64,000 bases of DNA from Polyangiales bacterium (GCA_046598735.1 JBKJIA010000466.1:17292-81291), one strand, 5' to 3'; numbered from the stretch's first letter, positions 1 to 64,000 are shown. Numbers and translations are program-made. The notes: generated by a model from the sequence alone, not told the origin.

Positions 1-966
1 GAAGGCTTCGTTGATGAACTGACTGGCGAGCACGGTATGGGCCGCATCGAGCGCGTCGGCCGTGGTCAGGTAGTTGTCTTCGCCCGTGTTGATGATGATG
101 CGCGAGCGCCCGATGATGCGTCGCGAAAAGTACTGGTCCACAAAGGTGCGACGCATGTTGATGTCGCGAAACAGAATCCCGTACATGGAATCGTTGAGCA
201 GCATGTCCAGGCGCTCGACCGCGGCCATCCACGCGATCTCGCTCATGCACAGGCCTGAGCTGTAGTTGGTGCCCATCACATAACGGCCCAGCTCTTCGCC
301 CGCTTGGTCGAGCGCTTGGCGAATGATGCGAAAGTTTTCTTGGGTCGCGTACGTGCCGCCATACCCTTCCGTGGTCGCGCCGTGCGGCACGTAATCGAGC
401 AAGCTTTGGGCTGTGGCGCGAATCACAGCCACCACATCGGCACCCGCGCGCGCTGCTGCTTTGGCCTGCACGGCGTCATCGTGAATGTTGCCCGTCGCGA
501 CGATCACGTACTTCCAGGGCGTGCCGCCCATCACGCGTTTGGCTTTGTTTTGTTCGCGTTCGTTGCGGGCGTCATCGATTCGCGCGATGCCGGCGCGCGT
601 CGCCTCCGTCAGCACGGCGGCAATGGCTTCGCGCGATTCCGAACCCTCAGGTGTGATCGGCGCGCGACCGTAGGCTAGTTGTTCTGCTGCTTCGAGCGCG
701 CTGCAACGCTTGCGTAACATCTCGCGACCGAGCACAAATGCGATGCCGCGATCAAGCAGGCCCGCGGCGTGCACACGATCGACAAGCTGATTGACCAAAG
801 GCGCGCCTTGATCGTCCACGCCCTCCACGCCCAGGGCGCGCGCGACCGTTCGCTCCACGCCCACCGTGGTATGCGCGTCGATGAAGCGCTGCACTTCCGA
901 CGCCACCTCCGCCGCTAGAAAGCGGCAGCGATTCACGACGCCCTGATCCAGCGCTACACGTCCCAT
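1..966 (-). CDS. kamD: Lysine 5,6-aminomutase alpha subunit (KamD-like); N-terminal 322 codons, gene continues past the left window edge
   Basis: Absent from the ORF track because there is no stop inside the window. My translation of the minus strand from the ATG at 966-964 stays open for 322 codons down to position 1: MGRVALDQGVVNRCRFLAAEVASEVQRFIDAHTTVGVERT ... IVATGNIHDD ... LLDYVPHGATTEGYGGTYATQENFR ... INTGEDNYLTTADALDAAHTVLASQFINEAF. These blocks match my memory of the B12/PLP-dependent lysine 5,6-aminomutase alpha family. Confidence 0.75.
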   Translation of the reverse strand, partial: MGRVALDQGVVNRCRFLAAEVASEVQRFIDAHTTVGVERTVARALGVEGVDDQGAPLVNQLVDRVHAAGLLDRGIAFVLGREMLRKRCSALEAAEQLAYGRAPITPEGSESREAIAAVLTEATRAGIARIDDARNEREQNKAKRVMGGTPWKYVIVATGNIHDDAVQAKAAARAGADVVAVIRATAQSLLDYVPHGATTEGYGGTYATQENFRIIRQALDQAGEELGRYVMGTNYSSGLCMSEIAWMAAVERLDMLLNDSMYGILFRDINMRRTFVDQYFSRRIIGRSRIIINTGEDNYLTTADALDAAHTVLASQFINEAF

Positions 967-1160
967 GCTCGTGCCTCCCGCGCCGCACCAGCGGCCAAAA
1001 GCCGACTATTTCCGGGCGTCTATAGAGACTAAGTGGCTTCGGGAAGCGCAGCAAGGGCGGGGGTGTGTGCCGCGTGAGCAAGAGCACTTTGTGGGCAAGA
1101 GACGGCCGCGCTTACGGCTGACGCGTTTTTTCCGGACAATCCCCGTGCTGCCATGTACGT

Positions 1161-1176
1161 TAGTGAGCACTCACTA
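1161..1176. promoter_or_regulatory. Putative TetR operator: inverted repeat TAGTGAG-CA-CTCACTA overlapping the tetR start codon
   Basis: Perfect 7-bp inverted arms with a 2-bp centre at 1161-1176. The last base is the A of the ATG at 1176. It lies in the divergent kamD/tetR intergenic region, and TetR-family regulators typically bind palindromes of this kind. Confidence 0.35.
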
Positions 1177-1826: not shown

Positions 1827-1835
1827 GCAGACGTC

Positions 1836-4149: not shown

Positions 4150-5150
4150 GCATGTCGGCGGGTAGAAACAACGCACCGACCCGGCCCCGCGGCTTTTCGG
4201 ACGCCGCAGCGGGACGCGCGTTGCTCATGGAACGGGATCCAGCGTGCGCACGGGATATCGCGCGTGTATTGCGCACGGTGGTGGGAACCACGGACGTGCG
4301 GGACAACTTCAGCGCGATCGAGTGGCAAGGTAAGTGGGACGTTGCGGTCATCAACTACGATCAGCTTTCTCAGAGCGAGAAAGATCGCGTGTTTACGCGT
4401 TTCAGCGAGCTGAATGCCTCAGGGGGCCTCTTACTGTTTGCAGCGCAGACCGAGCGTGAAGAGCTCGTGACCCTGTTCGGTCGCCATAAGGCGCGCAAGC
4501 TGCTCGCTCGCAACGGTCCGGTACATGCCGAAGACCTACTCGTGACCGTGCAAAAAACCCTCCGCAAGGACATCTTCGGTTTGGATAAGTACTTGGGCTG
4601 GGGCGCCCATGCCCGCCGCCTTAGTGTCACGAGCTCGAGCGACAAAGAACACGTGCTCGCGGGTTGCCAAAGCTTGGCCGATGCCATTGGCTTGAGTGCT
4701 CGTAAGACCGAGCTGCTCCTTACCGTTGCCGATGAGCTCACCACCAACGCCTTGTACGACGCGCCGGTAGACGCCTTGTCTCGCGCGCGCCATGCCGGGC
4801 TACCGCGCAGCGAACGCGTGGAGCTTGCCCCGACCGAAGAGATTGCCGTGACCTTTGCCAGCGACGGAAGACGCATCGGCATCTCGGTCGAAGACCCGTT
4901 TGGATCTCTCAGGCCCGAAACAGTGGTGGACTACCTCGCCAAATGCTTTCGCCGCGGCACCGACCAGATCGATCGCAAGGAAGGCGGCGCTGGGCTTGGT
5001 CTGTTTTACGCGTTCAACTCACTCTCGCACTTCGTGGCCAACATCGAGCCACGCAAACGCACCGAGCTTATCGGACTCATCGAGATCGCGGGCAGCTTTC
5101 GTGAGTTCGAGCAACGCGCCAAGAGCTTCAACGTCTTCGTCGAAGAGTAA
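4146..5150 (+). CDS. RsbW/SpoIIAB-like HATPase_c protein (putative anti-sigma serine kinase) with an N-terminal receiver-like domain
   Basis: 334 aa. The C-terminal half has ELLLTVADELTTNALYDAP (N-box-like) and KEGGAGLGLF (G-box-like). The N-terminal ~120 aa looks like a degenerate receiver (WDVAVINYDQL, with the acceptor position apparently Asn). It is translationally coupled to the STAS-like gene. Confidence 0.5.
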   Translation: MSMSAGRNNAPTRPRGFSDAAAGRALLMERDPACARDIARVLRTVVGTTDVRDNFSAIEWQGKWDVAVINYDQLSQSEKDRVFTRFSELNASGGLLLFAAQTEREELVTLFGRHKARKLLARNGPVHAEDLLVTVQKTLRKDIFGLDKYLGWGAHARRLSVTSSSDKEHVLAGCQSLADAIGLSARKTELLLTVADELTTNALYDAPVDALSRARHAGLPRSERVELAPTEEIAVTFASDGRRIGISVEDPFGSLRPETVVDYLAKCFRRGTDQIDRKEGGAGLGLFYAFNSLSHFVANIEPRKRTELIGLIEIAGSFREFEQRAKSFNVFVEE

Positions 5151-5158
5151 GGGCTGCC

Positions 5159-6519: not shown

Positions 6520-7314
6520 TCAGCGCGCATCGGAGCCGCGAAAGCGCACTGGCAGCGTGCTGTTATAGAACGCATCACGCAATTCGGCGGGTGGCTCGGG
6601 AATACTGGCGTTGGCTGCGATCAGCTCCTGCACGCGATCGAGCACGCTCTGATCGAATAGCGGATCGCCACTCGATTGCTGGATCTCCACGGACTTGATC
6701 CGGCCATCGTTCAAAACTTCCACGGCTGCGATCGCCGATAGGCCTTGGACGCTCTGCACGACGTTCGGCACGGTCCAACCGCGGCGAAAGAACAACGTAA
6801 GCTGGCCGAGGTAAATGTTGCCCGCCTGCGCCGTGGTCGCCGTACCTTCAGCGATGCCCTGCGGGTCGCCTTCCTGTTCGTCGGGCACGTCCTCCGCGAA
6901 CTCTTTGGTGCGATCGACCAGGTTGTCGAGCATGGAGTCTTGGGCTTCGGCCGGGCGATCTTTTTTGTCTTTGGGTTTGGGCTCGGTCTCCTGAGCGTCT
7001 TTAGAAACCACCACACCGTCAGGGGTGCGCTTGACGATCGGAGGCACCTTACGGTTTGGCAGTTTCGTGGGGTCGAAGGGCTTACCCAAACGCACGAACT
7101 CGGCGGCGATAGTGTTGGGCGGCAACTTCACGAGCTTGCGATCTCCGACCGGGATCGCCAGGCCCAAAAAGATCAGCAGCCATTGCGAAATCATCATCGC
7201 GAGGGGCACGAACACGTGTGCCGTGATCACGGCGGCGCCGCCCGCAGCCAACATCCCGGGCGAAACGGGCTGACGCGTGAGCAGAGACGGCGGACGCTCC
7301 TCGCTGACCACCAC
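6520..7314 (-). CDS. TolA/TonB-family energy-transducer protein (TonB_C-like C-terminus)
   Basis: 264 aa with an N-terminal TM, a Pro/Lys/Glu-rich linker (KPKDKKDRPAEAQD) and a C-terminal domain (GWTVPN...AVEVLNDGRIKSVEIQQSSGDPLFDQSV). Its position between tolR and tolB and its 1-nt overlap with tolR support the call. Confidence 0.7.
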   Translation of the reverse strand: MVVSEERPPSLLTRQPVSPGMLAAGGAAVITAHVFVPLAMMISQWLLIFLGLAIPVGDRKLVKLPPNTIAAEFVRLGKPFDPTKLPNRKVPPIVKRTPDGVVVSKDAQETEPKPKDKKDRPAEAQDSMLDNLVDRTKEFAEDVPDEQEGDPQGIAEGTATTAQAGNIYLGQLTLFFRRGWTVPNVVQSVQGLSAIAAVEVLNDGRIKSVEIQQSSGDPLFDQSVLDRVQELIAANASIPEPPAELRDAFYNSTLPVRFRGSDAR

Positions 7315-7724
7315 TACTCCGATGCCAAGGGGTCAGTGACGAGCCCGAGCTTTTGGATGCCTGCCTTGCGCACGATGGCCAGGATCTTGACTACGAAACC
7401 GTAAGGTACGGTCTCGTCGGCTTGGACGTAGAGCTCCTTTTCGCGCTTCATGCGGTCGTTCGACAGTAAGGTTGCCTCGAGCTTGTCAAAGGCGACCTCG
7501 TCACGGCCCAGATACACCTTCTGGTCCTTGGACACCGTCAACAGCAGCTTTTCCTCGTTGAGCTCCACGCGCGGCGCTTGCGCGGCCGGCAAATCTACCT
7601 CGACGCCTGTATTCATCATCGGTGCGCTCACCATGAAGATGATGAGCAACACCAACATCACGTCGACCAGCGGCGTGACGTTGATCTCTCCGATGGGTCC
7701 TTTGCCGCCACTACTGAACGCCAT
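7314..7724 (-). CDS. tolR: Biopolymer transporter ExbD/TolR
   Basis: 136 aa. INVTPLVDVMLVLLIIFMV is the ExbD/TolR signature TM. The operon context is consistent. Confidence 0.9.
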   Translation of the reverse strand: MAFSSGGKGPIGEINVTPLVDVMLVLLIIFMVSAPMMNTGVEVDLPAAQAPRVELNEEKLLLTVSKDQKVYLGRDEVAFDKLEATLLSNDRMKREKELYVQADETVPYGFVVKILAIVRKAGIQKLGLVTDPLASE

Positions 7725-15516: not shown

Positions 15517-16737
15517 GTGGCCGAGATGTCCGAGCAACCTCCCGAGCACAAGGCCACAAAAGCGCCCGCCAACGCGCGTCCCCGAACCTCGCTGACGAAC
15601 ACGGGCGGCGAAACGTGGGTGGCAGGCGATCCCGATATCAGCCAAGTGCTCGCCTACGCGATGCAAGTCGACGGCGTCGAGCGCGACCAGCTCACGCACG
15701 GTTTTCATAGCTACCCTGCGCGCATGCATTGGGCCACGGCCGAGCGCATTCTGAGCGCGTTCGGTCCCGATGCGACACGCGTGCTCGATCCATTCGTAGG
15801 CAGCGGCACCGTGCTCGTGGAAGCGCGCGTAGCCGGTTGCGCAGCGACGGGCGTCGACCTCAATCCGCTCGCTGCGCGTTTGGCGCGCGTGAAGTGCGAT
15901 CCGCTCGATGCCACACGCCGCGCCCAGCTCGCTACGTTCTCGCGCGAAGTCGCAGCTCGCTCCGAAGAGCGCGTGCGCGCGCGTGTGCCCGTGCACGCGC
16001 AACTGCCTGAAGGCGAAGTCGCGTGGTACCTGCCGCACGTGCTCAAAGAAATGGCGGGTTTGTTCGAGGAAATCGGGGCCGTCAAAGACGAGAGCTTGCG
16101 CGAGCGCTTGCTGATGGTGTTCTCATCGCTCGTGGTCAAGTTCTCGAAGCAACGCTCAGATACCGCCGAAGAAGAAATCGATCGACGTTTGCGCAAAGGC
16201 TTGGTCACGGAGTTCTTCGTGCGCAAGACCTCAGAGCTGTGCGAGCGATTGGAGGCGCTAGAGGCCGTTGTTACGGGCCCCTTCCCGCAAGTATTGAACG
16301 GCGATGCGCGGCGTCTGCAAGATCGCGTGGGGACAACGGCGCGCTTCGATCTCGTACTCACGTCTCCACCTTACGGTGGCACCTACGACTACGCGTCCCA
16401 TCATCAGAGGCGCTTTGGTTGGCTCGGCATCGACGGCTCGCAGTTTGCCGCGCGTGAAATCGGCGCCCGTCGACACGGCGATGCGCGTGCGCGTTTCGAG
16501 GCCGAATTACGCGCTGCCTTGAGCAGTATCCACGAAGTCACCGTGCCTGGCGCCCTGTGCATTTTCCTGATGGGCGATGCGCAGTACGGAAGCGAACGCG
16601 TACCGGCCGACGAGCTTATCGAAGCCTTGGCAGACGACGTGGGTTTCGAGCCACTGGCTCTTGCATCCCAAGAACGCGTGGACTTCGGCGGCGGTGCGCC
16701 GCGCCGCGAACATTTGATGGCCCTAGAACGCTCCTGA
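15517..16737 (+). CDS. Putative N4-cytosine/N6-adenine DNA methyltransferase (motif I before motif IV; solitary)
   Basis: 406 aa. HSYPARMHWATAERILSAFGPDATRVLDPFVGSGTVLVEA is the PF01555-type AdoMet region. About 190 aa later comes FDLVLTSPPYGGTYDY (SPPY catalytic motif). No restriction endonuclease-like neighbour is present. Confidence 0.55.
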   Translation: MAEMSEQPPEHKATKAPANARPRTSLTNTGGETWVAGDPDISQVLAYAMQVDGVERDQLTHGFHSYPARMHWATAERILSAFGPDATRVLDPFVGSGTVLVEARVAGCAATGVDLNPLAARLARVKCDPLDATRRAQLATFSREVAARSEERVRARVPVHAQLPEGEVAWYLPHVLKEMAGLFEEIGAVKDESLRERLLMVFSSLVVKFSKQRSDTAEEEIDRRLRKGLVTEFFVRKTSELCERLEALEAVVTGPFPQVLNGDARRLQDRVGTTARFDLVLTSPPYGGTYDYASHHQRRFGWLGIDGSQFAAREIGARRHGDARARFEAELRAALSSIHEVTVPGALCIFLMGDAQYGSERVPADELIEALADDVGFEPLALASQERVDFGGGAPRREHLMALERS

Positions 16738-18046: not shown

Positions 18047-20110
18047 ATGTTGGACAAGATTCCGCCAGATCGCCGCTGGATGCTGCTCATTGCTGCAGGC
18101 ATCGGCGCCGCGCTTGGCTACTACCTCAAGCCAGACCGTCCAACCGAAGGCTTGATTTACGGCCTCGTCGCAGCAGCTGGCGTCATCGTGGTCGTGTTGA
18201 ACGCAGCCGGTGGTGGCGACTTCAACGCGCTGCTCAATGCGGTCCGCGGCACGAGCGAGGGCATGCGCGCGGCGCGTCCGCTGGGCGCGGGTCCGCAAGA
18301 GGGCGCCGTGTACGACGCGCTCGATCAGCTCGCAAAGCAAGTATCAGGCCTCGACACGCGCGCGTTGGGTGCCGAAAAGAGCACGGAAGAGCGTAAGGGC
18401 GAGCTTGAACGTCTACGCACCGAATCCGAACGTTTGCGCACCGAATCCGATCGCCAGCGCAGCGAAGCCGATCGCTTTCGCGGCGATGCTGAGCGCTTTC
18501 GCGGCGATGCTGAGCGCGACAAGAGCGAAGCCGATCGCCAGCGCGTGGAAGCCGAGCGGCAGCGCAGTGAAGTCGAACGCATGCGGAGTGACATGGAGCG
18601 CTCTCGCATCGAGCTCGACGCATCACGCCGCGAAACCGATGGACTACGCCGCGAGCTCGACTCCATGAGCTCGCGTAGCGACAGCGCCACGAACGAAGCA
18701 TCACAACATCGCGAGCGCATTGGTCGTCTTGAAGCCGAGCTCAGCGGCACGCGCGGTGACGTGGAAGCCGTACGACGCGAAAACGAAGGCATGCGCGTTC
18801 GCCTCACCAGCATGCGCAACGAAGTGATGGAGCTCGAGAAGGTGGTCGGCGATTCGATCGCTGAAATCGGCGAAGGCGTCGATGAGCTTTCGGCCTCGCT
18901 CGAGCAGACCATGCGCGCGATTCACTCGCAGGCGGATGCCACGAAGGAGCTTGCGAACAACGTCGAGATGTTGGCCTCGAGCGCCGAAGAATCGAGCTCG
19001 TCCATCCTCGAGATGACTGCCACCAACGCAGAGGTTGCGGACAACATGTCGAGCCTCGGCGCAAGCGTGCGAGAGACGGTGTCTTCGATCGAAGAGATGG
19101 CGTACTCGATCAAGGAGGTTGCACGTAACGTCGACGCGCTTTCGCTCACTGCTGAAGAGACGTCGTCATCGATGAACGAAATGGACGTCTCCATCGATCA
19201 AGTGCGCTCGAATGCGAACGAGACGGCGCGCTTGTCCGAAGAAGTAGCCGTCGACGCCGAGCGCGGTGCAGAAGCCATTTTGAAGACGCTGGAAGAGGTC
19301 AATCGCATCAAGGAGACCTCGAGCGAAACCGTGAACATCATCGCTACGCTCGGTCAACGCATTGAAGCTATCGGCGATATCTTGAACGTCATCGACGACG
19401 TCGCCGAGCAGACAAACCTGCTCGCACTCAACGCTGCCATCATCGCCGCGCAGGCAGGTGAACATGGTAAGGGCTTCGCGGTCGTTGCCGATGAAATCAA
19501 GGACTTGGCCGAACGCGCCGGTGCATCGACCAAGGAGATAGCCGAGCTTATCAAGACGATTCAGGCCGAATCGAAGAACGCGATCAAAACGGTGGAACGC
19601 TCGAACGCTACCGTCGATCACGGCGTGCAGGTGTCTGCTGAAGCAGAAGCCGCCCTCAAGAAGATTTTGGATTCGTCGCAGAAGTCCACGAACATGGTGC
19701 GCGCCATCGCCCGCGCCACGGTGGAGCAGGCCAAGGGTAGTAAGCAGGTCACGGATGCGATCGGTCGTATCGCGGAAACCGTGCAGCAGATCGCAGCGGC
19801 CACGAGCGAGCAGGCGCGCGGCTCCGAGCTCATCATCAAGAGCGCAGAAAAGATGCGCGTGATTACCCAGCACGTGGAGCGCTCGTCGCAGGAGCAGGCG
19901 CGCGGCGGCAAGCAAGTTACGCAAGCCATCGAGAGCATCTCCACGATGGTCAATCAGCTTAACCAAGCGCAGCGGCAGCGCGCGGCGGAGGCCGACCAGT
20001 TGATGGCGGCGGCCAGCCGTGCACAACAACTGGTCCGCGACTTCGAACGTCAGATGCGAGCCCTCGGCAGCACGGCCGAGCGACTCCACAACATGGCGAC
20101 CACCACCTGA
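18047..20110 (+). CDS. Methyl-accepting chemotaxis protein (membrane hairpin anchor, no sensor domain, long charged repeat arm)
   Basis: 687 aa. Two closely spaced TM helices lie at about aa 11-27 and 36-52. The highly conserved MCP hairpin tip is [38 protein letters not shown]. No che genes are adjacent. Confidence 0.85.
18410..18682 (+). repeat. 13 tandem 21-bp (heptad) repeats inside the MCP gene, consensus R-x-R-S/G-E/D-A-E/D
   Basis: Translation: [91 protein letters not shown]. The DNA shows exact duplicates, for example cgctttcgcggcgatgctgag twice. Confidence 0.8.
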
Positions 20111-21364: not shown

Positions 21365-21381
21365 GGTCCGAGGCGCCCTAC

Positions 21382-21504
21382 CTCGCGACCTCACGCTCGC
21401 GACCTCACGCTCGCGACCTCACCCCTTGCCCCTCTCCACTCGTAAAGAGGGGAGGAGATCTGGCTCCCCTCGCCACGGAGTGGAGAGGGGTTGGGGGTGA
21501 GGTC
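21382..21504. repeat. Composite intergenic element: 3 x 14-bp tandem repeat running into a nested imperfect palindrome (possible bidirectional terminator / REP-like element)
   Basis: CTCGCGACCTCACG occurs three times (21382-21423). The outer arms are 21415-21441 (GACCTCACCCCTTGCCCCTCTCCACTC) and 21478-21504 (its complement, 24/27 matches). The inner stem is GAGGGGAG (21447-54) / CTCCCCTC (21464-71). It sits between the convergent tatC and SDR genes. Confidence 0.6.
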
Positions 21505-25610: not shown

Positions 25611-28301
<2,691 letters not shown>

Positions 28302-45280: not shown

Positions 45281-46435
45281 ATGACCGTACCCGCCACTTC
45301 GTTTCCGATGCGCAAGCGTCAGGCCTTGGCCCTGAGCGTGCTGTTCGTAGGGCTGCTTTGGTTGCCCACGATGGATTTGGTGTTCGGCATCGATCGCAAC
45401 CCCGTGCGCTCGCGGGAACCCATGCGGTTCCCCACCTTCGATCTGGCGTTGTCCTCGCTGAAGAAGTACCCAGGTGAGGTCGAGTGGTACCTGCGCAATA
45501 CGATGGGTTTTCAAGGCACCCTTTTGCGCTTGAACGGTCTATTCAAATTTCACGTGCTCAAGACTTCCGCCAACCCTCAGGTCGTGCTGGGCAAGCAAGG
45601 TTGGCTGTACCTCGAAGAAGACATCAAGGACTATCGGCATCTCAATGCCTTCAAGCCGGAGGAGCTTGAAAAATGGCTCGAGGTGGTCGGTGCGCGCAAA
45701 CGCTTCTTAGACAAGCGCGGCATTCGCTACTTCATCGTGGCTTGCCCCGACAAAGAGCTAGTCTACGACGAGTACCTGCCGCAGGCGTTCAAACGGGGCC
45801 AAGGGCCCTCTCGTGTCGAGCAGTTTGCAAGGGCTGTGCGCAAACGCTTGGGTGTTGAAGTGCTGGACCTGACGGAAACGCTGCGCGCCGCAAAAGGTAA
45901 GGATCGCCTCTACCATAAGACCGACACCCACTGGAACGACTTGGGTGCCTACGTGGGCTACGACGCGATCATCAATCACCTCGCCCACCACTATCCGAGC
46001 CTCAAGCCTGTCGAGCGCAGTGCGTTCAAACTCGAGGACCGCGCGGAAAAAGGCGGTGATTTGGCGCGCATCATCGGACTCAAGCTCGACATCCAAGAAC
46101 GCGCCCTGCTCCTGCACAACCCGGGCGCCCAGGCGCGTTTGCGATCCGGGCGCCCCATTACCTATCAGACCTTGGACGTGGGCGAAAACCCTAAGGTCGA
46201 GACTGTGTCGCCGCGCGCCGAGATTCCCTCGGCCGTGTTCGTGCGCGATTCGTTCGGCGAAGCGCTGATGCCGATGTTGTCTGAACACGTGGGCAAGGCG
46301 CAATGGCTGTGGACCGACTACAAGTTTCCCGCGCGCGAGATCGATGAGATGCGACCGAGCCTGGTGGTAGAGCAATGGGTAGGTCGCACCCTATCGAACT
46401 ACAAGGCCGAGAACCCGCCTGAAGTGAACCAGTAA
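45281..46435 (+). CDS. AlgX/AlgJ-like (DHHW/SGNH-type) O-acetyltransferase partner protein
   Basis: 384 aa with an N-terminal anchor, LYHKTDTHWNDLGAYVGY (D-x-H-W catalytic block) and RDSFGEAL. It lies directly downstream of the MBOAT gene. Confidence 0.7.
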   Translation: MTVPATSFPMRKRQALALSVLFVGLLWLPTMDLVFGIDRNPVRSREPMRFPTFDLALSSLKKYPGEVEWYLRNTMGFQGTLLRLNGLFKFHVLKTSANPQVVLGKQGWLYLEEDIKDYRHLNAFKPEELEKWLEVVGARKRFLDKRGIRYFIVACPDKELVYDEYLPQAFKRGQGPSRVEQFARAVRKRLGVEVLDLTETLRAAKGKDRLYHKTDTHWNDLGAYVGYDAIINHLAHHYPSLKPVERSAFKLEDRAEKGGDLARIIGLKLDIQERALLLHNPGAQARLRSGRPITYQTLDVGENPKVETVSPRAEIPSAVFVRDSFGEALMPMLSEHVGKAQWLWTDYKFPAREIDEMRPSLVVEQWVGRTLSNYKAENPPEVNQ

Positions 46436-46630
46436 GGTTTCCTCGCGGCAGAGCCGGTGATGGCATCGGTGATGGCATGGGTGGTGGTCGGTGCTGCATT
46501 GGCGGCCGACGGCGGAAGCTGGCGGATGCGCGCGTTGTCTGAGCCTATCCGTACGAGATGATTGACGCCGCGGCCGGCATCGCCGCTGCAAACCGGGCTT
46601 GTGAACCTCACAACCACCCGGAGCGATGTC

Positions 46631-50633: not shown

Positions 50634-51535
50634 GGTCTGTGCGCGATGCGCTGATCGTCGCGGGCTTCGAGCTCCTCGAGGCCCTGCGCAGCAAGCGCGT
50701 GTTGGTCCTGTCACTTCTCTACGTGGGAGGCTCGGTCGCAGGCGCCGTGTTGTTCGTCGATCTGCTCGCCAGCATCGAAGCCACCTTGGCCAAAACCTTG
50801 TTCGTGGCCGATCCGAGCAAACCGGGCGCGATGACGTTCGCGCTCCTGCAGAGCGAGCAGTTTCGGGCCGTGGTCAATCGCTTGATCCGCGATCCTGACC
50901 TTACGGATCGACTGATTACCTTACCCCCGCTTGCGACCTTCTATGGCTGGCTTGCGCTCACGTTCTTGCCGGTACTGGTGATGCTGACGTCGGTCGAGTC
51001 GATCACGCAGGACTTGCAGTCGGGTGCCGCGCGCTTTTCGCTCGTACGCTGTGATCGCTTGAGCTGGGCCGTGGGCAAGCTGCTCGGGCAAAGCGCATTG
51101 ATGTTAGCAAGTCTGACGCTCGGCTCGCTAGCCACTTTGCTGGTGGGGCTATTCCGAATGGATGGGATCGCGTTGCTGCCGACCTTACTGTGGTCTCTGC
51201 AGCTCTCGTTGCGTGCCAGTGTGTTCGGCTTTGCTTATGTAGGGCTCGCCCTGGGGCTCTCGCAGTTGACGCGCTCGGTGCAGATCGCACGGGCGCTTGG
51301 GCTGGCTGTGCTAGCGCTCTTCGGAGCGATGCGTGCCGTGCTCGAAAGCGATTGGACGATCGAGCGCGCACCAGTGATCGCTGCAACGCTCGGTCGTCTG
51401 TTGCCACGTTCCCACCAGATCGATCTGTGGCGGCCTGAGCTCAGCGCGCGTCTGCCGGCCATGGTCATGTTAGTCGCCTTAGGCATTAGTTTTTTCGCGG
51501 TAGGTCACGTCGTACGCAAACGCAGGGACGCCTGA
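50630..51535 (+). CDS. Putative ABC-2-type transporter permease
   Basis: 301 aa with about six hydrophobic segments. It is translationally coupled on both sides (ATGA-type overlaps), including to the downstream ABC ATPase. Confidence 0.5.
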   Translation: MRSVRDALIVAGFELLEALRSKRVLVLSLLYVGGSVAGAVLFVDLLASIEATLAKTLFVADPSKPGAMTFALLQSEQFRAVVNRLIRDPDLTDRLITLPPLATFYGWLALTFLPVLVMLTSVESITQDLQSGAARFSLVRCDRLSWAVGKLLGQSALMLASLTLGSLATLLVGLFRMDGIALLPTLLWSLQLSLRASVFGFAYVGLALGLSQLTRSVQIARALGLAVLALFGAMRAVLESDWTIERAPVIAATLGRLLPRSHQIDLWRPELSARLPAMVMLVALGISFFAVGHVVRKRRDA

Positions 51536-52476
51536 TGAACGATGCGCTGAGCTTCGATCAGGTGCACAAGCATTACGGCAAACGCCGCGCGCTCGATGGG
51601 CTCACCTTACGCGTGCCGCAAGGCAGTATCTCGGGCTTGATCGGGCCGAACGGCGCAGGGAAAACCACCACTTTTGGCGTAGCCTCAGGTTTGTTGCGCG
51701 CGGATGCGGGGCGCATCGACGTGCTCGGGCAAGGACCTTACGATCCCTACCGGCAGCGCGGCTTACTCGGACTCTTGCCACAAGACTCGGAGCTCATTCC
51801 CCATGGTCGGGTAGCGATACAGCTCACCTACCTTGCACGCTTGCAGGGCTTGAGCGCGAAAGAAGCCGACCGTGATGTCGCACGGGTGCTCGAGCTCGTC
51901 GCCTTGCGCGATCGCGCGGGTGAACGCATTGGTGCGCTTTCCCATGGCATGCGCCGCCGGGTCGCGGTGGCGCAAGCGCTGCTCGGTACGCCTAAGCTCG
52001 TGCTGCTCGATGAGCCTACGAGCGGCCTCGATCCGCACTTGGTCAAGCAGATGCGCGATGTGATCGTAGAGACCAACCAACGTCAGCGGGTGACCTTCGT
52101 CGTGAGCTCCCATGTGCTCGCCGACTTGGAGGCGATCTGTGATCACGTGATCTTCATCGAAGCGGGGCGCACCATCCAGAGCGGCTCGTTGAGTCAGATC
52201 ACGGGGCGTGGGCAGCACATTCAGGTGAGCGTGAAGCGCATGCCTACACTCGATCAGCTGCATACAGCGTTAGGTGAGCTGAGCTTCGCATGCGCGGAGC
52301 AAACCATCAGCGTGCAAGTCCCGACGGGCGCTGAAGTGTCGTCGATCAACGCACGATTGCTGCGCGCCTTGCTCGACCTCGACGCTGGCGTGCTCGAAGT
52401 GAAAGCGGGCGGCAGTCTCGAGCAGACGTACTTGGCAGAACGTAAGGCCTGGCAGGCGCGCAGCGCACAGGGGTAA
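51535..52476 (+). CDS. ABC transporter ATP-binding protein
   Basis: GPNGAGKTTTF (Walker A), LSHGMRRRVAVA (signature) and LVLLDEPTSGLD (Walker B). Confidence 0.9.
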   Translation: MNDALSFDQVHKHYGKRRALDGLTLRVPQGSISGLIGPNGAGKTTTFGVASGLLRADAGRIDVLGQGPYDPYRQRGLLGLLPQDSELIPHGRVAIQLTYLARLQGLSAKEADRDVARVLELVALRDRAGERIGALSHGMRRRVAVAQALLGTPKLVLLDEPTSGLDPHLVKQMRDVIVETNQRQRVTFVVSSHVLADLEAICDHVIFIEAGRTIQSGSLSQITGRGQHIQVSVKRMPTLDQLHTALGELSFACAEQTISVQVPTGAEVSSINARLLRALLDLDAGVLEVKAGGSLEQTYLAERKAWQARSAQG

Positions 52477-52511
52477 GCAGGGAATCACCAAATTCCACCG
52501 CGGCTTGCGCC

Positions 52512-53594: not shown

Positions 53595-53597
53595 ACC

Positions 53598-54053
53598 TTA
53601 CGGTTTGCTAAGCGCGGGCTTGGGCTCCACCAGCTCGATCAACATGCCGCCTGTGTCTGCGGGGTTCAGGTACGCCATCTTGAACGACGGTAGCTCGACC
53701 ATCCCGTTCGGCGTGACGTGACCCGGTCGAATCCCGCGCGCGGCCAGGCGGGTTAGTACCTGACCCAAGTCGCGCACCGTCCATGCGACGTGATTGATGC
53801 CGGGCCGGTCTGCGAGCAGGATCTGTTTGAAGTAGTCCGACACTGGCTCGATCAGCTCGAACTCGGCGCCGCACACGCGCACAAAACCGAAGCGCGTCTC
53901 GCAGGCTTCGCCAAATGGCGGAGTCACCGTGATCTGATCGGGCGTCAGCTCATAGACATGCGTGAAATGGGCAAGCGTCGCCTGCAGGTCGCTGGTGATG
54001 TGCCCGACGTGCCGTAGGCCGACGATAAGGTCCTGAATGCCAAGCTGCATCAT
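53598..54053 (-). CDS. VOC-family protein (glyoxalase / methylmalonyl-CoA epimerase-like)
   Basis: 151 aa. VGLRHVGHITSDLQ, GINHVAWTVRDL and ELVE are paired beta-alpha-beta-beta-beta metal-site motifs. Confidence 0.7.
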   Translation of the reverse strand: MMQLGIQDLIVGLRHVGHITSDLQATLAHFTHVYELTPDQITVTPPFGEACETRFGFVRVCGAEFELIEPVSDYFKQILLADRPGINHVAWTVRDLGQVLTRLAARGIRPGHVTPNGMVELPSFKMAYLNPADTGGMLIELVEPKPALSKP

Positions 54054-56617
54054 TCGTAAGCGAGCGCCTCTTTCACATCCATTCCGGCAGCCTTACGCCC
54101 CGGAAAGAAGCCGGCAAAGGCGGCAGCGCCCACCACGAACAACGTCATGCGAATCGCCGTGTCCATGGGAAAGCCGTAGGCCAAGTTCCAACCACTGGTG
54201 GCCGTGCCGATCACCTTCAAGAAGATGTAACCCTGCGGCACGCCCGCGATGACCCCGCATACCGATGCCGCCAAGCCAAGGAAGCCCGCTTCGACCACTA
54301 AGCTCACCACCACCTGATTGCGGGTGGCACCGATGGCGCGCAGCATGCCGATTTCGCGGATGCGGTCGATCACGGCAGCCAACATCGTGCCGATCACGCC
54401 CATGATCGCGACGAGTAAGGTAATAAGCTCGGGCGCCTTGGCGTACGCAAACACGCTCTTGGCGACCGACGACAGCTCCTTACGCAAATCATCGTGCAAC
54501 GTGACGAACAGACTCTGGGTGGCACCCAAGCGCTCGCGGATGGTCTTGACGATTGCCTCGTGGTTGGTCTTGTCGTCGAAGAACATATCGACACCATCAA
54601 CCTTGTCGTCCTGCCAGAGCGAGCCGTACCACTTACGGTCCATCATCATCCAGCCTTGATCGTAAGAGTAGTCGACCACCACGGCGTAGACCTCGAAGGC
54701 CTGCGCGCCGGAGGGCGTGTCGAGCTTGACCGAATCACCCACAGACAAATGATGAATGTTGGCCATGTTCTCGGAAATCATCACGCGCTGCTTGTCAACG
54801 AGTGCTGTGTCACCGATTACGGCGGGGCCTTCGATCACGTGGCGGCTGCGACCCTTTTTCTTCGATTGCTCGAAGTAGATCTTAGTATCCACCGAAGCTA
54901 TCTGAGCACGACGACCATTGACGTCGTGGAATACGGCGCGCACCGGGTTTATCCCGATCACGCCCGGAATGTTTTGCAGCTTGTCGACGACGTTCGGCGC
55001 AAACGGAACGTGATGCCGATCGAGCAGCGGAGAGCCGGCCGTGATCAGTGCGTCGGCGGGGAACGCGTCGTCTGCCCACTGCACGACCGACTGCTCAAAG
55101 GCGCGTGCATAGGCGCCCACGCTCATGCTCATCGCCACCGCGAGCATCAGCGCCACGACGGTGATCGCGCTGCGGCTCAACGAACGTTCTACGTTATCAA
55201 GCGCAATGCGACCGGGTATGCCGAGCAACGCTTCAACGATCTTGACGAGGGCAAGGCGCAGCCACTTGACGGCAAAGGGCACGAGTAAGGTCAGCCCGAT
55301 CACGAGCACGATGCTGGCGATGTAGCCGTTGATTTCGCCGCCGCGCATGGCGGGGATCCAAGACAAAAGCGCGATCACGATGCCCGCCACCGCCAAGCGA
55401 CCTTGGGACATGACACCCGACATCGAGGTGGAGCGCGAGGCGCGCAGAGCTTCGGCGGGATCGACTTTGTTCGTTTCGCGCGCCGGCAAATAGGCCGCGA
55501 TCAAGGTGGTGATGAAGCCGGCCGCTATGCCGGCGAGCGCGACCTGTCCGGTGATGCGCGGGGGCGGTGGATGGATGGGCATCACGAAGCGATTGACGGT
55601 GCCTTCCACGTTGGCGAGAGCCACGTTGGCAAGCTGTTGTGCGAGCACCAGGCCGAGGGCCGTACCGATCGCGGCCATCACCAAGGCCTCGAGACAGAAC
55701 AACCACACCATCTTGTTCTTGGTCACGCCGAGCGCGCGCAAGATACCCACCTCGCGACGACGCTGCGCAACGCTCACGCTGACGGCGTTGTAGATCAGGA
55801 ACATGCCGACCCAAAGCGAGACGAGCCCGGACATATTGAGGCCGTTCTTGAAGGCCCACAACGACGCCACAAGACGCTGCGTACGCCCCTTGGGAGCTTC
55901 GACCTGAGCCTTACCTTTGATGAGCTTCGCGATGCGGGCCTGCACCTCGGGAACCGGCACGCCTTCCTTGACGACGATGTCGATGCGATCGACCGAATAA
56001 CCGCGCGAAAAGCTGACCTGCGCGGCATCGATGAACATGACCACGACTTGACCGCCGAACGACGCGGCAGGGCCGGCATCCTCGAGCAGACCGCGCACGA
56101 AGAACTCTTTGTTGCCCTCCGAGGTCACGAGCGACAACGAATCGCCGACCTTCAGACCGCGGCCTTGCGCAAGCTTCTTCGATACTAAGATCGCGGTCGG
56201 ATCGTTCACGAACGCGAGCGGATCAGAAATCACCGAATCCTTACCCTCTTGCGCAAAGGGTAGGAAGAACGTGTCGCCCAAAAAGTCGACGCCCAAAACC
56301 AGGAGCGCGCCGCCTTTGCCGTCCGGGGTGCGCGTGGTGACCTCGAGCATCGCGGCAGCGTGATCCACGCCATCGATGTCTGCGATGTCGCCCGTAAGCG
56401 AGCTTGGAATGCCAGCGTCGCTACCAGCAACCGTAAGGTCTGCTTTGCCGGCTACGCGGTCCACCATGTCTTCGAACGCGGCCACCAAACTCGCGTTGGT
56501 GGCGAGCACGGCGCACAGCATGCACACGCCGAGTGAGATCCCGAAAATGACGAGCGCCGTGCGAAACGGAGAGTGACGCAAGTGTCGTAACGAGATCTCA
56601 CGCAATAAGGTCCACAT
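54050..56617 (-). CDS. Fused double FtsX-domain ABC transporter permease (MacB/YbbP-like)
   Basis: 855 aa with two copies of the FtsX module (..RRREVGILRALGVTKNKM.. and ..RIREIGMLRAIGATRNQV..), each preceded by a large extracytoplasmic domain. Confidence 0.85.
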   Translation of the reverse strand: MWTLLREISLRHLRHSPFRTALVIFGISLGVCMLCAVLATNASLVAAFEDMVDRVAGKADLTVAGSDAGIPSSLTGDIADIDGVDHAAAMLEVTTRTPDGKGGALLVLGVDFLGDTFFLPFAQEGKDSVISDPLAFVNDPTAILVSKKLAQGRGLKVGDSLSLVTSEGNKEFFVRGLLEDAGPAASFGGQVVVMFIDAAQVSFSRGYSVDRIDIVVKEGVPVPEVQARIAKLIKGKAQVEAPKGRTQRLVASLWAFKNGLNMSGLVSLWVGMFLIYNAVSVSVAQRRREVGILRALGVTKNKMVWLFCLEALVMAAIGTALGLVLAQQLANVALANVEGTVNRFVMPIHPPPPRITGQVALAGIAAGFITTLIAAYLPARETNKVDPAEALRASRSTSMSGVMSQGRLAVAGIVIALLSWIPAMRGGEINGYIASIVLVIGLTLLVPFAVKWLRLALVKIVEALLGIPGRIALDNVERSLSRSAITVVALMLAVAMSMSVGAYARAFEQSVVQWADDAFPADALITAGSPLLDRHHVPFAPNVVDKLQNIPGVIGINPVRAVFHDVNGRRAQIASVDTKIYFEQSKKKGRSRHVIEGPAVIGDTALVDKQRVMISENMANIHHLSVGDSVKLDTPSGAQAFEVYAVVVDYSYDQGWMMMDRKWYGSLWQDDKVDGVDMFFDDKTNHEAIVKTIRERLGATQSLFVTLHDDLRKELSSVAKSVFAYAKAPELITLLVAIMGVIGTMLAAVIDRIREIGMLRAIGATRNQVVVSLVVEAGFLGLAASVCGVIAGVPQGYIFLKVIGTATSGWNLAYGFPMDTAIRMTLFVVGAAAFAGFFPGRKAAGMDVKEALAYE

Positions 56618-57722: not shown

Positions 57723-58799
57723 ATGTCAAAGCGCGATTACTACGAAGTGCTCGAGGTTGAGCGCACCGCCTCTGGCGATGAGATCAAAAAGGCGTACCGC
57801 AAGCTTGCGCTGAAGTACCACCCCGATCGCAACCCGGACAATCCAGAAGCCGAGGAGATGTTTAAGCTCGGCTCCGAGGCGTACTCGGTGTTGAGCGATC
57901 CCAGCAAGCGGCCTCGCTACGATCAGTTCGGGCATGCGGGTGTCGATGGCAGCCAAGGCGGCGGCTTCCAGGACATGGGCGACATCTTCAGCCAGTTCAA
58001 CGACCTGTTCGGCGACTTCTTTGGTGGCGGCGGGGCCGGCGGCGGTCGCGGCCGACAACGGCGTGATGGTCCGACCCAAGGCGCGGACTTGCGCACGGTC
58101 GTGCAGCTCACGCTAGCCGAGGCCGTGTTCGGCGTGAAGAAGGACGTGGAGCTTGCCCATCCATCGCCCTGCGAGAGCTGTCATGGCAGCGGCGCGAAAA
58201 ATGGTGCGATCGCCACCTGCGCCACCTGCCATGGTAAGGGTCAGGTTTCCCACGCACGCGGTCCGTTCTTGATGAGCAGCACCTGCCCGTCCTGTCAGGG
58301 TCGCGGTTCAGTGCCCAAGGAAGCGTGCCCGAGTTGTCGCGGCGCAGGCGAAGTCCAAGTAGACCGTAAGGTCAAGGTCACCATCCCAGCGGGCATCGAT
58401 CACGGCCAAACCTTACGCGTGGCAAGTCAGGGCCAGGCCGGACGCAAGGGCGGGCCCTCCGGGCACTTGTACGTGACCGTCGATGTGGCGGACGACACGC
58501 ACTACGAACGCCAAGGCGTCGACTTGGTGCACGAGTTGCGCGTACCCTTCCCAGTGGCCGCGCTCGGTGGTGAAGTCGAAATTCCTACGCTCGAAGGCGA
58601 AAAGGCCAACGCTAAGATTCCGGCGGGCACGCAGCCTGGTCAGACCGTGGTCGTCAAAGGGTATGGTGTGCCGCGCCTGGATGGTCGGGGCCGCGGCGAC
58701 CTTATCGCAGTCGTGCAGATCGATGTGCCTAAGAAGCTGTCGTGGAAGGCCAAGGGTTTGCTCAAGGATCTGCGCGAAGCGCTCGCCAAAGACGAGTGA
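57723..58799 (+). CDS. dnaJ: Molecular chaperone DnaJ
   Basis: The ATG at 57723 gives [12 protein letters not shown]. It has the HPD motif (KYHPDRN), a G/F-rich linker and four CxxCxGxG repeats ([32 protein letters not shown]). Confidence 0.95.
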
Positions 58800-58826
58800 T
58801 AAACGCTGCTGCGCCGCCGCTTTGGA

Positions 58827-61700: not shown

Positions 61701-61708
61701 GGCGCGGA

Positions 61709-63418
61709 CTACAGCGCGGGCACGCTGCTGATCACACTAAAATCAGCATCGACGGGGTCGGCCTGCTCAGCCCTGGGTGCCTTGCCCCAGCTGCCCTGAA
61801 AGGCGGCGGTGCCGAGCTCATCGACGATGCTGTCGCTATCGCTGTCCGACACGAGCAGCTCGCCGCGCACGCCGATGCTGGGATGATCGACGTCAAGCGT
61901 GGTCAATTTTGCGGTGGCCTTCATGAGCAGGACATCGATGGCGCTGTCGCATGCGGCGCTTACGCAGTTCCCGTCACAGGCGTTCGCGACGACAGGTTGT
62001 TTGGCGGCCCATTGCACGAGCTCGTCGCAACCAGATTGGGGTGCGAGTAAGCCTACAAGACCGTTCTTTTCCGCGGCCTCGATCGCATCGAGCAAGTGCC
62101 CCGCATAAGTGCCGAGAGGGAGCTGAATGCGAATCGTGTCGACTGCGATCACGGCCCGCGCGTCGTCGTACTGAGCATCGATACTCGTCACCGGGAGCAG
62201 CGTCGCGGGGCAGCTGAGTGAACGCATGCCATCGGCCGAGCGCGACTGCATGGCCGAAAGTGTCAGGCTCATGGGCACGCCCGCGACCGAGGTCACACCG
62301 TAAGATGCCTGCAACGCCAGACGGCTGCCGCGGTCTTGAATCTCCGAGCCCAGCTTGGCGAGCCAGGGCTGCGGCCCCGCGTTGGCGCCGTTCAAATCGG
62401 CCTGCAGAGACGTGTCGAGCGTCCCGCCCATGCGCGCCACTACCAAAGCGTCGGCGTCCGCGCGCCTGCCTGCCCTGCGCATGCCCGCTTCGATGGCATC
62501 GAGGAAGTAATCTGCGCCAGCCAAGTTGGCGGTGCTAAGCACGGATTGTCCGCCCGCGATCGCCGTTTCGCCTGCACGCTGCGCAGAGCGGGCCACGTCG
62601 AGCTCAAGCGTGACTTTGTAGCTACCGCGTAAGGTGAGCGCGCGATCGCGCAACTCGATCGTGACGCCCTCGATGGTGGGCCCCGGCGCGACCGGCACGT
62701 CGATTTCCGTGCACCCATCTGCCAAGACGCCGCCGCGTCGACCGCTGCCCCAGCCGATGATCGCGTAGTGCAGACCCGGTCCAAGCTCGAACGTCAGGCT
62801 GCCTTCTGGGTTATCGTAAGCGTCCGTGGTTTCGCCCTTGGTCGCGTTCGCGAGCGCAGCCAGGGCGGCGTCGCAGCCCAAGCCAGGCAGGACGGTTACC
62901 GTGCGCAGAGCCAGGTCCCGTAGGCCGGAGTAGCTCGCCGTCACCTGCACCTCGCGCACAGCGCTCTTCGAGACCGAGACATCGACATAGGCGGGCGCCG
63001 CCCCCGCAGCGCTCGCTCGCACGCGAAACTCCGCAGCATCGCTGCCTACGGTGAGCTGCGCCACCGCTTCCCCGTTTTCATCGGTGACGGCCTGGGCCCA
63101 GATCCCCGCGTTGATCGAGCGCTCTGGCGACAACGAAGCCCCCTTGGCATCCCCTACCAAGGCGAACTCGATCGCTACGCCAGCGAGCGGCTCGGGCCCA
63201 CCCTTACCGTCGAGGTTGTCGGCAAGATAAACAATGCGGATTTCAGCCGTGCCGCGCGGGGCCACCCTGAGTTGCGTGGGGCTCAGCACCGACAACGTGC
63301 CGCCCTGCGTACTCCCATAGTTACCGTCGGTGTCGGCCGATTCGGCAGAGTCACCACAGGCTGCAAGCACCGGGCAAAGCAGGCAGGTAGCGAGTGCGAT
63401 GATTGATCGGGTAAACAT
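61709..63418 (-). CDS. Hypothetical lipoprotein (Ig-like/beta-rich)
   Basis: 569 aa with a lipobox LLCPVLAACG and several Cys pairs in the C-terminal region. I recognise no family. Confidence 0.5.
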   Translation of the reverse strand: MFTRSIIALATCLLCPVLAACGDSAESADTDGNYGSTQGGTLSVLSPTQLRVAPRGTAEIRIVYLADNLDGKGGPEPLAGVAIEFALVGDAKGASLSPERSINAGIWAQAVTDENGEAVAQLTVGSDAAEFRVRASAAGAAPAYVDVSVSKSAVREVQVTASYSGLRDLALRTVTVLPGLGCDAALAALANATKGETTDAYDNPEGSLTFELGPGLHYAIIGWGSGRRGGVLADGCTEIDVPVAPGPTIEGVTIELRDRALTLRGSYKVTLELDVARSAQRAGETAIAGGQSVLSTANLAGADYFLDAIEAGMRRAGRRADADALVVARMGGTLDTSLQADLNGANAGPQPWLAKLGSEIQDRGSRLALQASYGVTSVAGVPMSLTLSAMQSRSADGMRSLSCPATLLPVTSIDAQYDDARAVIAVDTIRIQLPLGTYAGHLLDAIEAAEKNGLVGLLAPQSGCDELVQWAAKQPVVANACDGNCVSAACDSAIDVLLMKATAKLTTLDVDHPSIGVRGELLVSDSDSDSIVDELGTAAFQGSWGKAPRAEQADPVDADFSVISSVPAL

Positions 63419-63604
63419 CGGAATTTGGGAGAAAACCGCCTAGGATCGGGAAGCTACGGGCTGCGCCTGGGAATCGCAAATCCGCGTTTGTGTCTCAACA
63501 CAGCTCGGCCCACTGGGCATTCCCGTGTCATTTCGGGAGCTATTGCGCAAAGCACAGCTTGCGCGCGCCTCGTGCCCGTCGCCCCAGCGTGGTAGGCACG
63601 GGCC

Positions 63605-64000
63605 GTGTCCTACTCGCTCGTCGTCGGATTGCGCTATCTGCGCTCGAAAAAGCGCAAAACCATCTCGGCCATCACGTTCATCGCGGTCGCTGGCGTGGCG
63701 CTCGGCGTGGCCGCGCTCCTCACCGTGATGTCGATCACAGGCGGCTTTCAGGATGCTTTTCGCGCCAAGATTCTGGGCGTGAACTCGCACGTGTTGGTGC
63801 TGAAATACGGTGTCGATTTCAGCGAGTATCGCGAGGTCGTCAGCCACGCCGAAGACCTCCCCGAAGTCGCAGGCGCCGCGCCATTCGTGATTCACGAAAT
63901 GATGTTGTCGAAGGGCAGCCGTCTATCGGGCGTGCTCGTGAAAGGCATCGACCCCGAGCGCATGCCTAAGGTGCTCGATTTGCCGAGCCAAATGGTGCGC
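63605..64000 (+). CDS. Lipoprotein-releasing system permease LolC/LolE family (N-terminal 132 codons; continues past the right edge)
   Basis: Not in the ORF track because there is no stop in the window. The frame opens after a TAG at 63593-95. The GTG at 63605 gives VSYSLVVGLRYLRSKKRKTISAITFIAVAGVALGVAALLTVMSITGGFQDAFRAKILGVNSHVLV..., which parallels the E. coli LolC/LolE N-terminus (..IGLRYMRGR...). Confidence 0.8.
   Translation, partial: MSYSLVVGLRYLRSKKRKTISAITFIAVAGVALGVAALLTVMSITGGFQDAFRAKILGVNSHVLVLKYGVDFSEYREVVSHAEDLPEVAGAAPFVIHEMMLSKGSRLSGVLVKGIDPERMPKVLDLPSQMVR

Follow-up and report, generated by a model that had tools for sequence, protein, structure and literature searches.

A short asymmetric word, CTTAC/GTAAG, is over-abundant throughout 64 kb of an uncultured Polyangia genome

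The 64-kb stretch of DNA analysed here (the window, positions 1–64000) derives from a Polyangiales bacterium (GCA_046598735.1) and contains 55 densely packed genes, which are long bacterial open reading frames (ORFs) that occupy 94 % of its length, with no broken genes among them. The gene content is of the housekeeping type, with Tol-Pal, GyrB, TamA/TamB, Tat, DnaJ, Hsp33, Ccm and ABC transporters, and neither a tRNA gene nor an Rfam match was found in the window. The GyrB gene (25818–28301) places the window in the uncultured Polyangia/Myxococcota, and the best GTDB representative by GyrB is a Polyangiales metagenome-assembled genome (MAG) with 68 % amino-acid identity. Over the whole of positions 1–64000, on both strands and evenly across the 55 genes and the intergenic DNA, lies a field of 184 copies of the pentamer CTTAC/GTAAG, 97 of which are in the extended form described below. 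A reading of GTAAG as eukaryotic 5′ splice sites was discarded, since long bacterial ORFs follow one another closely throughout the window.

The 184 copies consist of 86 CTTAC on the plus strand and 98 GTAAG, representing the copies on the minus strand, which corresponds to 2.9 per kb. An earlier reading of the same DNA, made by hand from the sequence alone (hereafter the sequence-only reading), had claimed at least about 180 copies, and this estimate was borne out by the program count, as was its exact count of 68 in the region 43–64 kb (30 CTTAC and 38 GTAAG). The guanine-plus-cytosine (GC) content of ~64 % that it had assumed was too high, the actual value being 61.7 %. Words of the same base composition are scarce, as had also been claimed: CTTAG/CTAAG occurs 33 times in the whole window and 19 times in 43–64 kb (~17 by hand), and GTTAC/GTAAC occurs 31 times in the whole window. 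Against an order-1 Markov model, for which 45.3 copies were expected, the 184 copies gave a z of 20.6, and against an order-2 model, for which 69.5 were expected, a z of 13.7; CTTAC/GTAAG was the top pentamer in both comparisons.

The excess was also evaluated in coding DNA by shuffling synonymous codons within each gene. The 167 coding copies of CTTAC/GTAAG exceeded the 58.7 expected under this null, with 98 vs 29.0 for sense CTTAC (z = 14) and 69 vs 30.6 for sense GTAAG (z = 7.8). When the shuffle additionally preserved the dinucleotides at the codon boundaries, the expectations were 52.5 for sense CTTAC (z = 8.0) and 27.2 for sense GTAAG (z = 9.8), whereas the control words showed ratios of ~1. 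Among all 512 strand-merged pentamers, CTTAC ranked first by its ratio to the synonymous expectation (2.84, z = 15.4), and the ratio in each ~22-kb third of the window was 2.6–3.0. At 24 other bacterial loci of ~22 kb each, which were run with the gene caller and the null used for the window, the best pentamer reached only 1.5–2.1, and CTTAC itself was mostly at 0.5–0.9. A ratio near 1 under a codon- and dinucleotide-preserving null, which the sequence-only reading had named as its own refutation, was not observed (z = 8–10), and the part of its proposal that places the bias on the word as DNA, rather than on codon, codon-pair or dinucleotide usage, survived both shuffles.

The aligned copies revealed that the extended motif is asymmetric and ~11 bp long, a-C-CTTAC-(not A)-N-T-(not A). 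Upstream of the core, C is present at −1 in 47 % and A at −2 in 34 % of the copies; downstream, A is present at +5 in only 3 %, T at +7 in 53 % as compared with a background of 19 %, and A is scarce at +8. Outside −2 to +8, no base preference was seen in the aligned copies. The extended form CTTACNNT was found 97 times, as compared with 8.7 ± 2.9 in dinucleotide-preserving shuffles, and 88 times in coding DNA, as compared with 16.8 under the synonymous null, where it was the top gapped word. The 11-mer consensus, ACCTTACGGTT, has five copies against 0.01 expected, located at 7046–7056, 41235–41245 and 53595–53605 on the plus strand and at 7397–7407 and 56429–56439 on the minus strand. The information in the motif, a 5-bp core with weak flanks, amounts to ~12 bits.

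One-off variants of the core followed by NNT exhibited ratios of 0.6–1.7 and thus no enrichment, and the preference for T at +7 was absent from these variants, except for a weaker echo at CATAC (43 %, n = 30) and CTGAC (32 %). The flank positions are statistically independent of each other, without covariation; complementarity between the flanks is at the level of chance, and the stem-length distribution is as expected. The base following the core is C in 69 copies (CTTACC) and G in 75 (CTTACG), and GGTAAG is therefore not favoured over CGTAAG. A −10 promoter-like reading, based on the TAnnnT spacing contained in TACNNT, was rejected, as the sequence upstream carries no information and sites inside genes lie on both strands.

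The sequence-only reading had taken an octamer as the core of the motif and had drawn attention to mini-palindromes that could form hairpins with a C(GUAA)G tetraloop. All 17 octamers that it had located were found in place, ten as CCTTACGG and seven as CCGTAAGG, whereas the real extension of the word is asymmetric, CTTAC-B-N-T. Both of its mini-palindromes, CCACC-TTAC-GGTGG (16366–16379, plus strand) and GACC-GTAA-GGTC (58362–58373, plus strand), are likewise present, but stems of this kind are no commoner than chance predicts, and the hairpin proposal was not upheld, because the two flanks pair no better than random sequence would and their preferences are independent. Since C at −1 and G or C at +5 are each preferred independently, the octamer and the mini-palindromes are by-products of these preferences and not hairpins.

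The word is used in every reading frame. Sense CTTAC is distributed over the three frames as 27/33/38, and the split between sense and antisense copies in genes is 98 CTTAC vs 74 GTAAG, in place of the 3:1 preference for CTTAC on the sense strand that had been suggested. Nearly all sense GTAAG copies are NGT-AAG (63), which was chosen at 63 of 193 possible dipeptides as compared with 25.9 expected, confirming the preference described by the sequence-only reading; GTAAG takes the frame that would introduce an in-frame TAA at just five places, all of them real stops. The TTA codons lie in the context C-TTA-C in 38 of 82 cases overall and in 21 of 43 cases in plus-strand genes; every site listed earlier is present, but the C-TTA-C share comes to about half, short of the majority that had been claimed. 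Of the synonymous opportunities in the four enriched frame classes, 8–33 % are occupied, as compared with 2.6 % in the Val-Ser/Arg class (GTA-AGx), and the odds ratios per synonymous opportunity, computed from opportunity counts, are ~3–6, a strength similar to that of codon-usage bias.

Intergenic DNA contains 12 copies vs 3.7 expected (3.2-fold). The T at +7 recurs in each frame class, on either strand and in the spacers, at 34–63 % (classes of at least 12 sites) as compared with 19 % in the background. These results confirm the occurrence in all frames, on both strands and between genes that had been stated, and they show the enrichment to be equally strong in each of these settings. The absence of a plus/minus skew was also confirmed over the window (86:98): seven of the eight 8-kb bins are near even, and the last bin, with 5 vs 21, covers a region of mostly minus-strand genes. 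This strand balance would also be compatible with a window that spans ori or ter. The copy density is uniform across the 8-kb bins and per gene, and the spacing is slightly more even than random, with a coefficient of variation of 0.873 as compared with 0.989 ± 0.072 (p = 0.038).

TAA accounts for 10 of 53 stops in the window, and five of these ten lie inside the motif as G-TAA-G, including all those noted earlier. On the plus strand, GTAAG holds the TAA stop of the gene 4269–5150 (at 5147–5151), of tatC, 20561–21364 (at 21361–21365), of the gene 45281–46435 (at 46432–46436) and of the gene 51535–52476 (at 52473–52477). The complement of the 11-mer at 53595–53605 provides a further G-TAA-G stop (53598–53600), which ends the minus-strand gene 53598–54053. 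The tatC stop is genuine, as the product has 267 amino acids in the window and 268 in the orthologue of the relative L164, introduced below. Directly 3′ of this stop is a perfect 14-bp tandem repeat (CTCGCGACCTCACG, 2.9 units; 21382–21422).

The 11-mer at 41235–41245 is located within an intergenic 26-bp tandem repeat (41211–41271, plus strand; 2.3 units, 80 % match), the units of which open with CTTACGGTT at 41211, 41237 and 41263. This repeat occupies the spacer between a convergent AhpC/TSA-like gene (40595–41209) and ccmB (41270–41947). A repeated element, such as a miniature inverted-repeat transposable element, was rejected as the source of the word, since copies lie inside conserved housekeeping genes and this one tandem repeat alone carries it.

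The distribution of the excess was examined at relatives' loci that are syntenic with 15.7–39 kb of the window at 71–86 % nucleotide identity. The order-1 and codon-aware ratios of the window are 4.1 (4.06) and 2.84, respectively. The corresponding values are 3.8 and 2.2 for L082 (JGI 3300050184; GyrB amino-acid identity 87 %), 3.2 and 1.9 for L164 (JGI 3300050184; 93 %), 2.2 and 1.9 for L166 (GCA_038257655.1; 97 %), 1.5 and 1.0 for L165 (GCA_031409455.1; 93 %), and 1.25 and 1.4 for L083 (GCA_047601445.1; 79 %), and the order-1 ratio of L081 (GCA_031413855.1; 90 %) is 1.4. Four close relatives thus exhibit a graded excess, and the extended motif is common to three of them, the T at +7 being present at 72 % in L164 and L082 together, as compared with 28 % in the non-enriched pool. 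The excess was not found in more distant relatives and ~100 other bacteria: the mean over ~75 loci of more distant bacteria was ~0.8 of the order-2 expectation, with a maximum of 1.6, and among 104 loci of at least 15 kb no pentamer exceeded the order-1 ratio of 4.06 seen for the window. A GyrB scan of metagenome contigs yielded, among the matches listed, distant relatives only, with at most 65 % identity.

GyrB distances pair L164 with L165 as sisters (96.5 %), but the strength of the excess differs about two-fold between them, whereas L082, which is more distant, is strongly enriched. These results indicate that the pressure is clade-specific but variable in strength. The GC content of the more enriched genomes tends to be lower (61.7–64.4 % vs 64.0–67.0 %).

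At the positions of the window's motif sites, CTTAC was found in 10 of 50 sites in L164, 8 of 26 in L082 and 10 of 26 in L166, as compared with 2 of 45 in L165 and 2 of 35 in L083, which are weakly enriched. Orthologous positions that lack CTTAC mostly read CTTGC, CCTAC, CTCAC or CTTTC, corresponding to several one-step routes. The routes into the word comprise C-to-T and G-to-A transitions at three positions, in the contexts C[C]TAC, CT[C]AC and G[C]AAG, as well as the transversion from CTTTC. No one-step neighbour was selectively depleted among the pentamers under the synonymous null, TTTAC and CTTAT included. A Vsr-like single-route conversion was therefore rejected, as there are several precursor words and no depleted neighbour; the Vsr-type origin that had been raised earlier also runs in the wrong direction. 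CTTGC, the commonest word opposite the window's CTTAC sites, is itself among the most over-represented pentamers of the L165 locus as CTTGC/GCAAG (order-1; 91 vs 47.4).

The majority of the sites are private to one genome, and the conservation of motif sites is no higher than that of average pentamers. In comparison with matched controls, that is, the same rare codon types (TTA, CTT, NGT, GTA and NCT) with a conserved amino acid, motif-forming rare codons were shared more often among the enriched genomes (38 % vs 22 %, p = 0.0015) and less often with the weakly enriched ones (8 % vs 17 %, p = 0.047). The conservation check proposed with the sequence-only reading thus came out negative relative to average pentamers and positive relative to matched rare codons among the enriched genomes. 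The amino acids under the motif are conserved at the background rate (72 % vs 69 % expected in L164; 62 % vs 67 % in L165). This background rate indicates that the motif is made by synonymous choice under normal protein constraint, and it excludes sequencing error.

Several further features of the window were noted. The codon usage is odd for 62 % GC, in that the Leu codon TTG (505) is used nearly as often as CTG (594) and CTC (675), and Val is mostly GTG. Under the synonymous-codon null for the window's coding DNA, CGAGC/GCTCG, which ranks first in L164, L166 and the unrelated locus L101 as well, is enriched 1.9-fold (z = 19); GGAGG/CCTCC stands at 0.33-fold, indicating avoidance of Shine-Dalgarno-like words, and CCCCC/GGGGG (0.28-fold), CTTAA/TTAAG (0.20-fold) and AATTG/CAATT (0.21-fold) are likewise depleted. 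At the left edge, the gene for the D-lysine 5,6-aminomutase alpha subunit (1–966, minus strand) is truncated by the end of the window, and a TetR regulator and an RPE65-type carotenoid oxygenase adjoin it. The gene 18047–20110 is similar to those for methyl-accepting chemotaxis proteins (MCPs); its product of 687 amino acids has a methyl-accepting chemotaxis signalling domain, and within the gene are ~7 copies of a 21-bp (7-residue) tandem repeat with 71–81 % match (18407–18580). In the minus-strand gene 32394–32663, a run of TCG triplets and 12-bp repeats spans ~31 triplets (32425–32523). This ORF encodes 89 amino acids without a Pfam match, and at its position the relatives have a small unannotated gene directly downstream of a DUF1844 gene.

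The plus-strand gene 15517–16737 encodes a protein of 406 amino acids, the C-terminal segment of which has a weak, partial match to a DNA methylase (PF01555, 33.8 bits). Its neighbours, namely a Ser/Thr kinase gene, the MCP-like gene and tatA/tatC, are kept in L164, L083 and the P0007 contig. In the two relatives whose DNA extends to this region, L164 and L083, the methylase-like gene is present irrespective of whether the excess is strong (L164) or weak (L083), indicating that it does not track the motif.

These properties were compared with those of known over-abundant words. Like the uptake signal sequences (USS) of Pasteurellaceae and the DNA uptake sequences (DUS) of Neisseriaceae, CTTAC is a short asymmetric word with a strict core and weaker flanks; it occurs in both orientations, in all frames, and in genes and spacers, with fairly even spacing and no replication skew; and it is lineage-specific, with strengths or dialects that vary, and is kept as a density rather than as essential single sites. 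Thousands of copies would be expected genome-wide. An asymmetric core with weaker flanks, placement in either orientation and in any frame, in genes as well as spacers, at even intervals and unskewed by replication, and a strength that varies among relatives have been described for USS and DUS (in part in PMC3458573, PMC2817400 and PMC3630211). The differences are that the CTTAC core is 5 bp long (~12 bits with its flanks) as compared with 9–12 bp, that its excess is 3–11-fold as compared with hundreds-fold, and that it forms no terminator-like inverted pairs. The highly iterated palindrome HIP1 (GCGATCGC) of cyanobacteria and the alternate HIPs are also hyper-abundant in all frames and spacers and are lost or replaced in some relatives; whereas HIPs are GC-rich palindromes with an excess of 15–300-fold and conserved sites, the CTTAC word is AT-centred and non-palindromic, with a 3–11-fold excess and fast turnover. 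Whether selection or a methylation-linked bias in repair causes the HIP excess is under debate (PMC5861425, PMC4390886).

Chi (GCTGGTGG in E. coli, AGCGG in B. subtilis) resembles CTTAC in being an asymmetric, group-specific word of 5–8 nt that is frequent in genes and has a few-fold excess. Chi and words of the type of the FtsK-orienting polar sequences (KOPS) are strongly co-oriented with replication, whereas the two orientations of CTTAC are equal across the 64 kb. Very-short-patch repair (VSP; Dcm/Vsr in E. coli, with an excess of CCWGG and a deficit of CTAG) similarly shifts short-word abundance independently of frame, but Vsr converts T:G to C:G at one position, whereas CTTAC is reached at three, without a depleted neighbour. 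The bacteriophage exclusion (BREX) sites are, to our knowledge, not over-represented in their hosts. In E. coli HS, the BREX protein PglX/BrxX reads GGTAAG as an asymmetric N6-adenine methyltransferase (PMC6326788), whereas the CTTAC word accepts C, G or T as the next base (V before GTAAG), and no BREX genes were seen in the DNA examined.

The defining feature of each known family therefore fails for CTTAC: the palindrome of HIP, the information of USS/DUS, the skew of Chi/KOPS and the direction of VSP. By analogy, the word would work most like the USS/HIP class. The comparison in kind that the sequence-only reading had drawn thus stood for HIP1 and uptake sequences and fell for Chi/KOPS, as there is no strand skew.

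Overall, the excess is very probably a real, lineage-specific property of the double-stranded DNA of one uncultured Polyangia clade, and we are just as confident that the word is favoured wherever the protein sequence permits, via synonymous codons, and equally in spacers. Since the turnover is fast and several one-step routes lead into the word, it is the density of the word, not the individual sites, that is maintained, by a continuing weak directional bias. The strict core with an additive, gapped flank over one helical turn suggests a sequence-specific DNA-binding protein, rather than a polymerase or lesion context. The best reading overall is a continuing motif-directed bias exerted by a putative sequence-specific DNA-recognising activity.

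For the mechanism of this bias, an uptake-sequence-like molecular drive is the leading candidate, drawn by analogy, although we are far from convinced of it. The DNA-uptake or recombination machinery would bind the CTTAC word preferentially, so that word-bearing alleles from relatives would be taken up and recombined in more often than word-lacking alleles. The word would thereby build up genome-wide, in both orientations and all frames, and the strength of the drive would vary among sister lineages. This drive was ranked slightly above a methylation-linked process because the word is asymmetric, evenly spaced and turning over. Several points weigh against it. The two processes predict almost the same static pattern, as does, nearly, direct selection for density; the core information of ~12 bits is far below that of USS/DUS (9–12 bp), and the excess is 3–11-fold rather than hundreds-fold. 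In the 64-kb window, no competence gene or receptor was found, and none of its genes is a candidate driver of the word excess. The data examined are the 64-kb window and ~90 kb from relatives, which tempers the genome-wide scope of the reading.

In a broader formulation, CTTAC-NN-T, an asymmetric AT-centred pentamer with a gapped flank, may be a genome-wide 'self' word of a class not described before, read by a putative sequence-specific protein of this uncultured Polyangia clade. It is held with similar reserve, as one joint proposition, that the density of this word would be kept by an active drive, either biased uptake and recombination or motif-restoring repair, that switches strength between sisters.

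A methylation-linked, HIP1-like process is a rather doubtful alternative, in which a lineage-specific asymmetric methyltransferase (Type III, Type IIG or BREX-PglX-like) would read CTTAC(NNT)/GTAAG, and methylation or the bound enzyme would shield the word from mutation or GC-biased repair, or would steer repair to restore it. An asymmetric core of 5–6 bp with flanking preferences is typical of such enzymes, and entry from several neighbour words would be expected if exit from the word were slowed, rather than one entry route sped up. However, no one-step neighbour is selectively depleted, the classical Vsr works oppositely (T to C), and no repair system is known to re-create an asymmetric word in full, which counts against this process. 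Proteins that read such a word do exist, as GGTAAG is the site of the E. coli HS BREX methyltransferase (PMC6326788), although in the window GGTAAG is not favoured over CGTAAG. HIP words co-occur with cognate methyltransferases, for which a methylation-dependent repair model has been proposed (PMC4390886). The patchy, graded strength, such as 3.2-fold in L164 and 1.5-fold in L165 at 96.5 % GyrB identity, would fit a gene prone to gain and loss, but the window holds no such methyltransferase, the one methylase-like gene in it, at 15517–16737, being a weak match and also present in the weakly enriched L083.

Direct weak selection for the density of binding sites, either of a nucleoid-organising protein or as a Chi-like 'self' marker for a nuclease or defence system, is unlikely. 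The fold excess (3–11-fold) and the length (5–8 nt) are nearer to those of known Chi words than to those of USS or HIP, the spacing is slightly even, and the sites are common to the enriched genomes more often than matched codons; a precedent is HIP1, for which maintenance by selection and a role at the scale of the nucleoid have been argued (PMC5861425). The orientations are, however, balanced over 64 kb (86:98), unlike those of Chi/KOPS, and the sites are not conserved above average pentamers and are mostly private to one genome.

A neutral, context-dependent mutation or repair bias is more improbable still; here, a lineage-specific polymerase or repair quirk would make CTTAC(NNT) a mutational sink. 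The same excess at intergenic and synonymous positions, the fast turnover without effect at the amino-acid level and the lower GC content of the more enriched genomes all fit this explanation. However, three transitions in unrelated contexts and the CTTTC transversion converge on the word, which argues against a single mutational hotspot as well as a Vsr-type mechanism. Moreover, known polymerase or lesion effects do not resemble a preference for a base that lies three positions from the core, beyond an indifferent one, and no enrichment is seen for one-off variants of the core with NNT after them.

A translational or RNA cause, such as a codon-pair bias, an effect of tRNAs or selection for transcripts with C(GUAA)G GNRA hairpins, would account for the strongly affected TTA codons and NGT-AAG pairs and for the few perfect mini-palindromes, but it is very improbable, as the enrichment is alike in all sense frames, in the antisense orientation and between genes, it withstands shuffles that keep codons and dinucleotides, and flank complementarity at chance is accompanied by neither flank covariation nor an Rfam match. 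A sequencing or assembly artefact, e.g. base-calling errors at a modified motif, is scarcely credible: although L164 and L082 share one JGI metagenome, the differences at motif sites are mostly synonymous with amino acids conserved at the background rate, in-frame GTAAG appears only at genuine gene ends, the gene density is 94 % without broken genes, and two independent NCBI assemblies, the MAG of the window itself and GCA_038257655.1, also carry the excess.

The literature searched described neither an excess of CTTAC/GTAAG nor methylation at a CTTAC motif. Chi, KOPS, USS/DUS and HIP1 are the few characterised over-abundant words, each of which led to DNA-handling machinery, and the CTTAC word is a statistically robust new case in a phylum without a known one. 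The contrasts between sisters (about two-fold at 96.5 % GyrB identity) would allow complete MAGs to reveal the responsible gene by presence and absence. The word may serve as a lineage signature in binning and as a means of telling apart foreign DNA in these genomes, and it may help to explain their odd use of TTA, NGT and TAA codons. If the reading of CTTAC as a 'self' word is true, the range of HIP/USS-type phenomena would be broadened to include Myxococcota and short words that are not palindromes.

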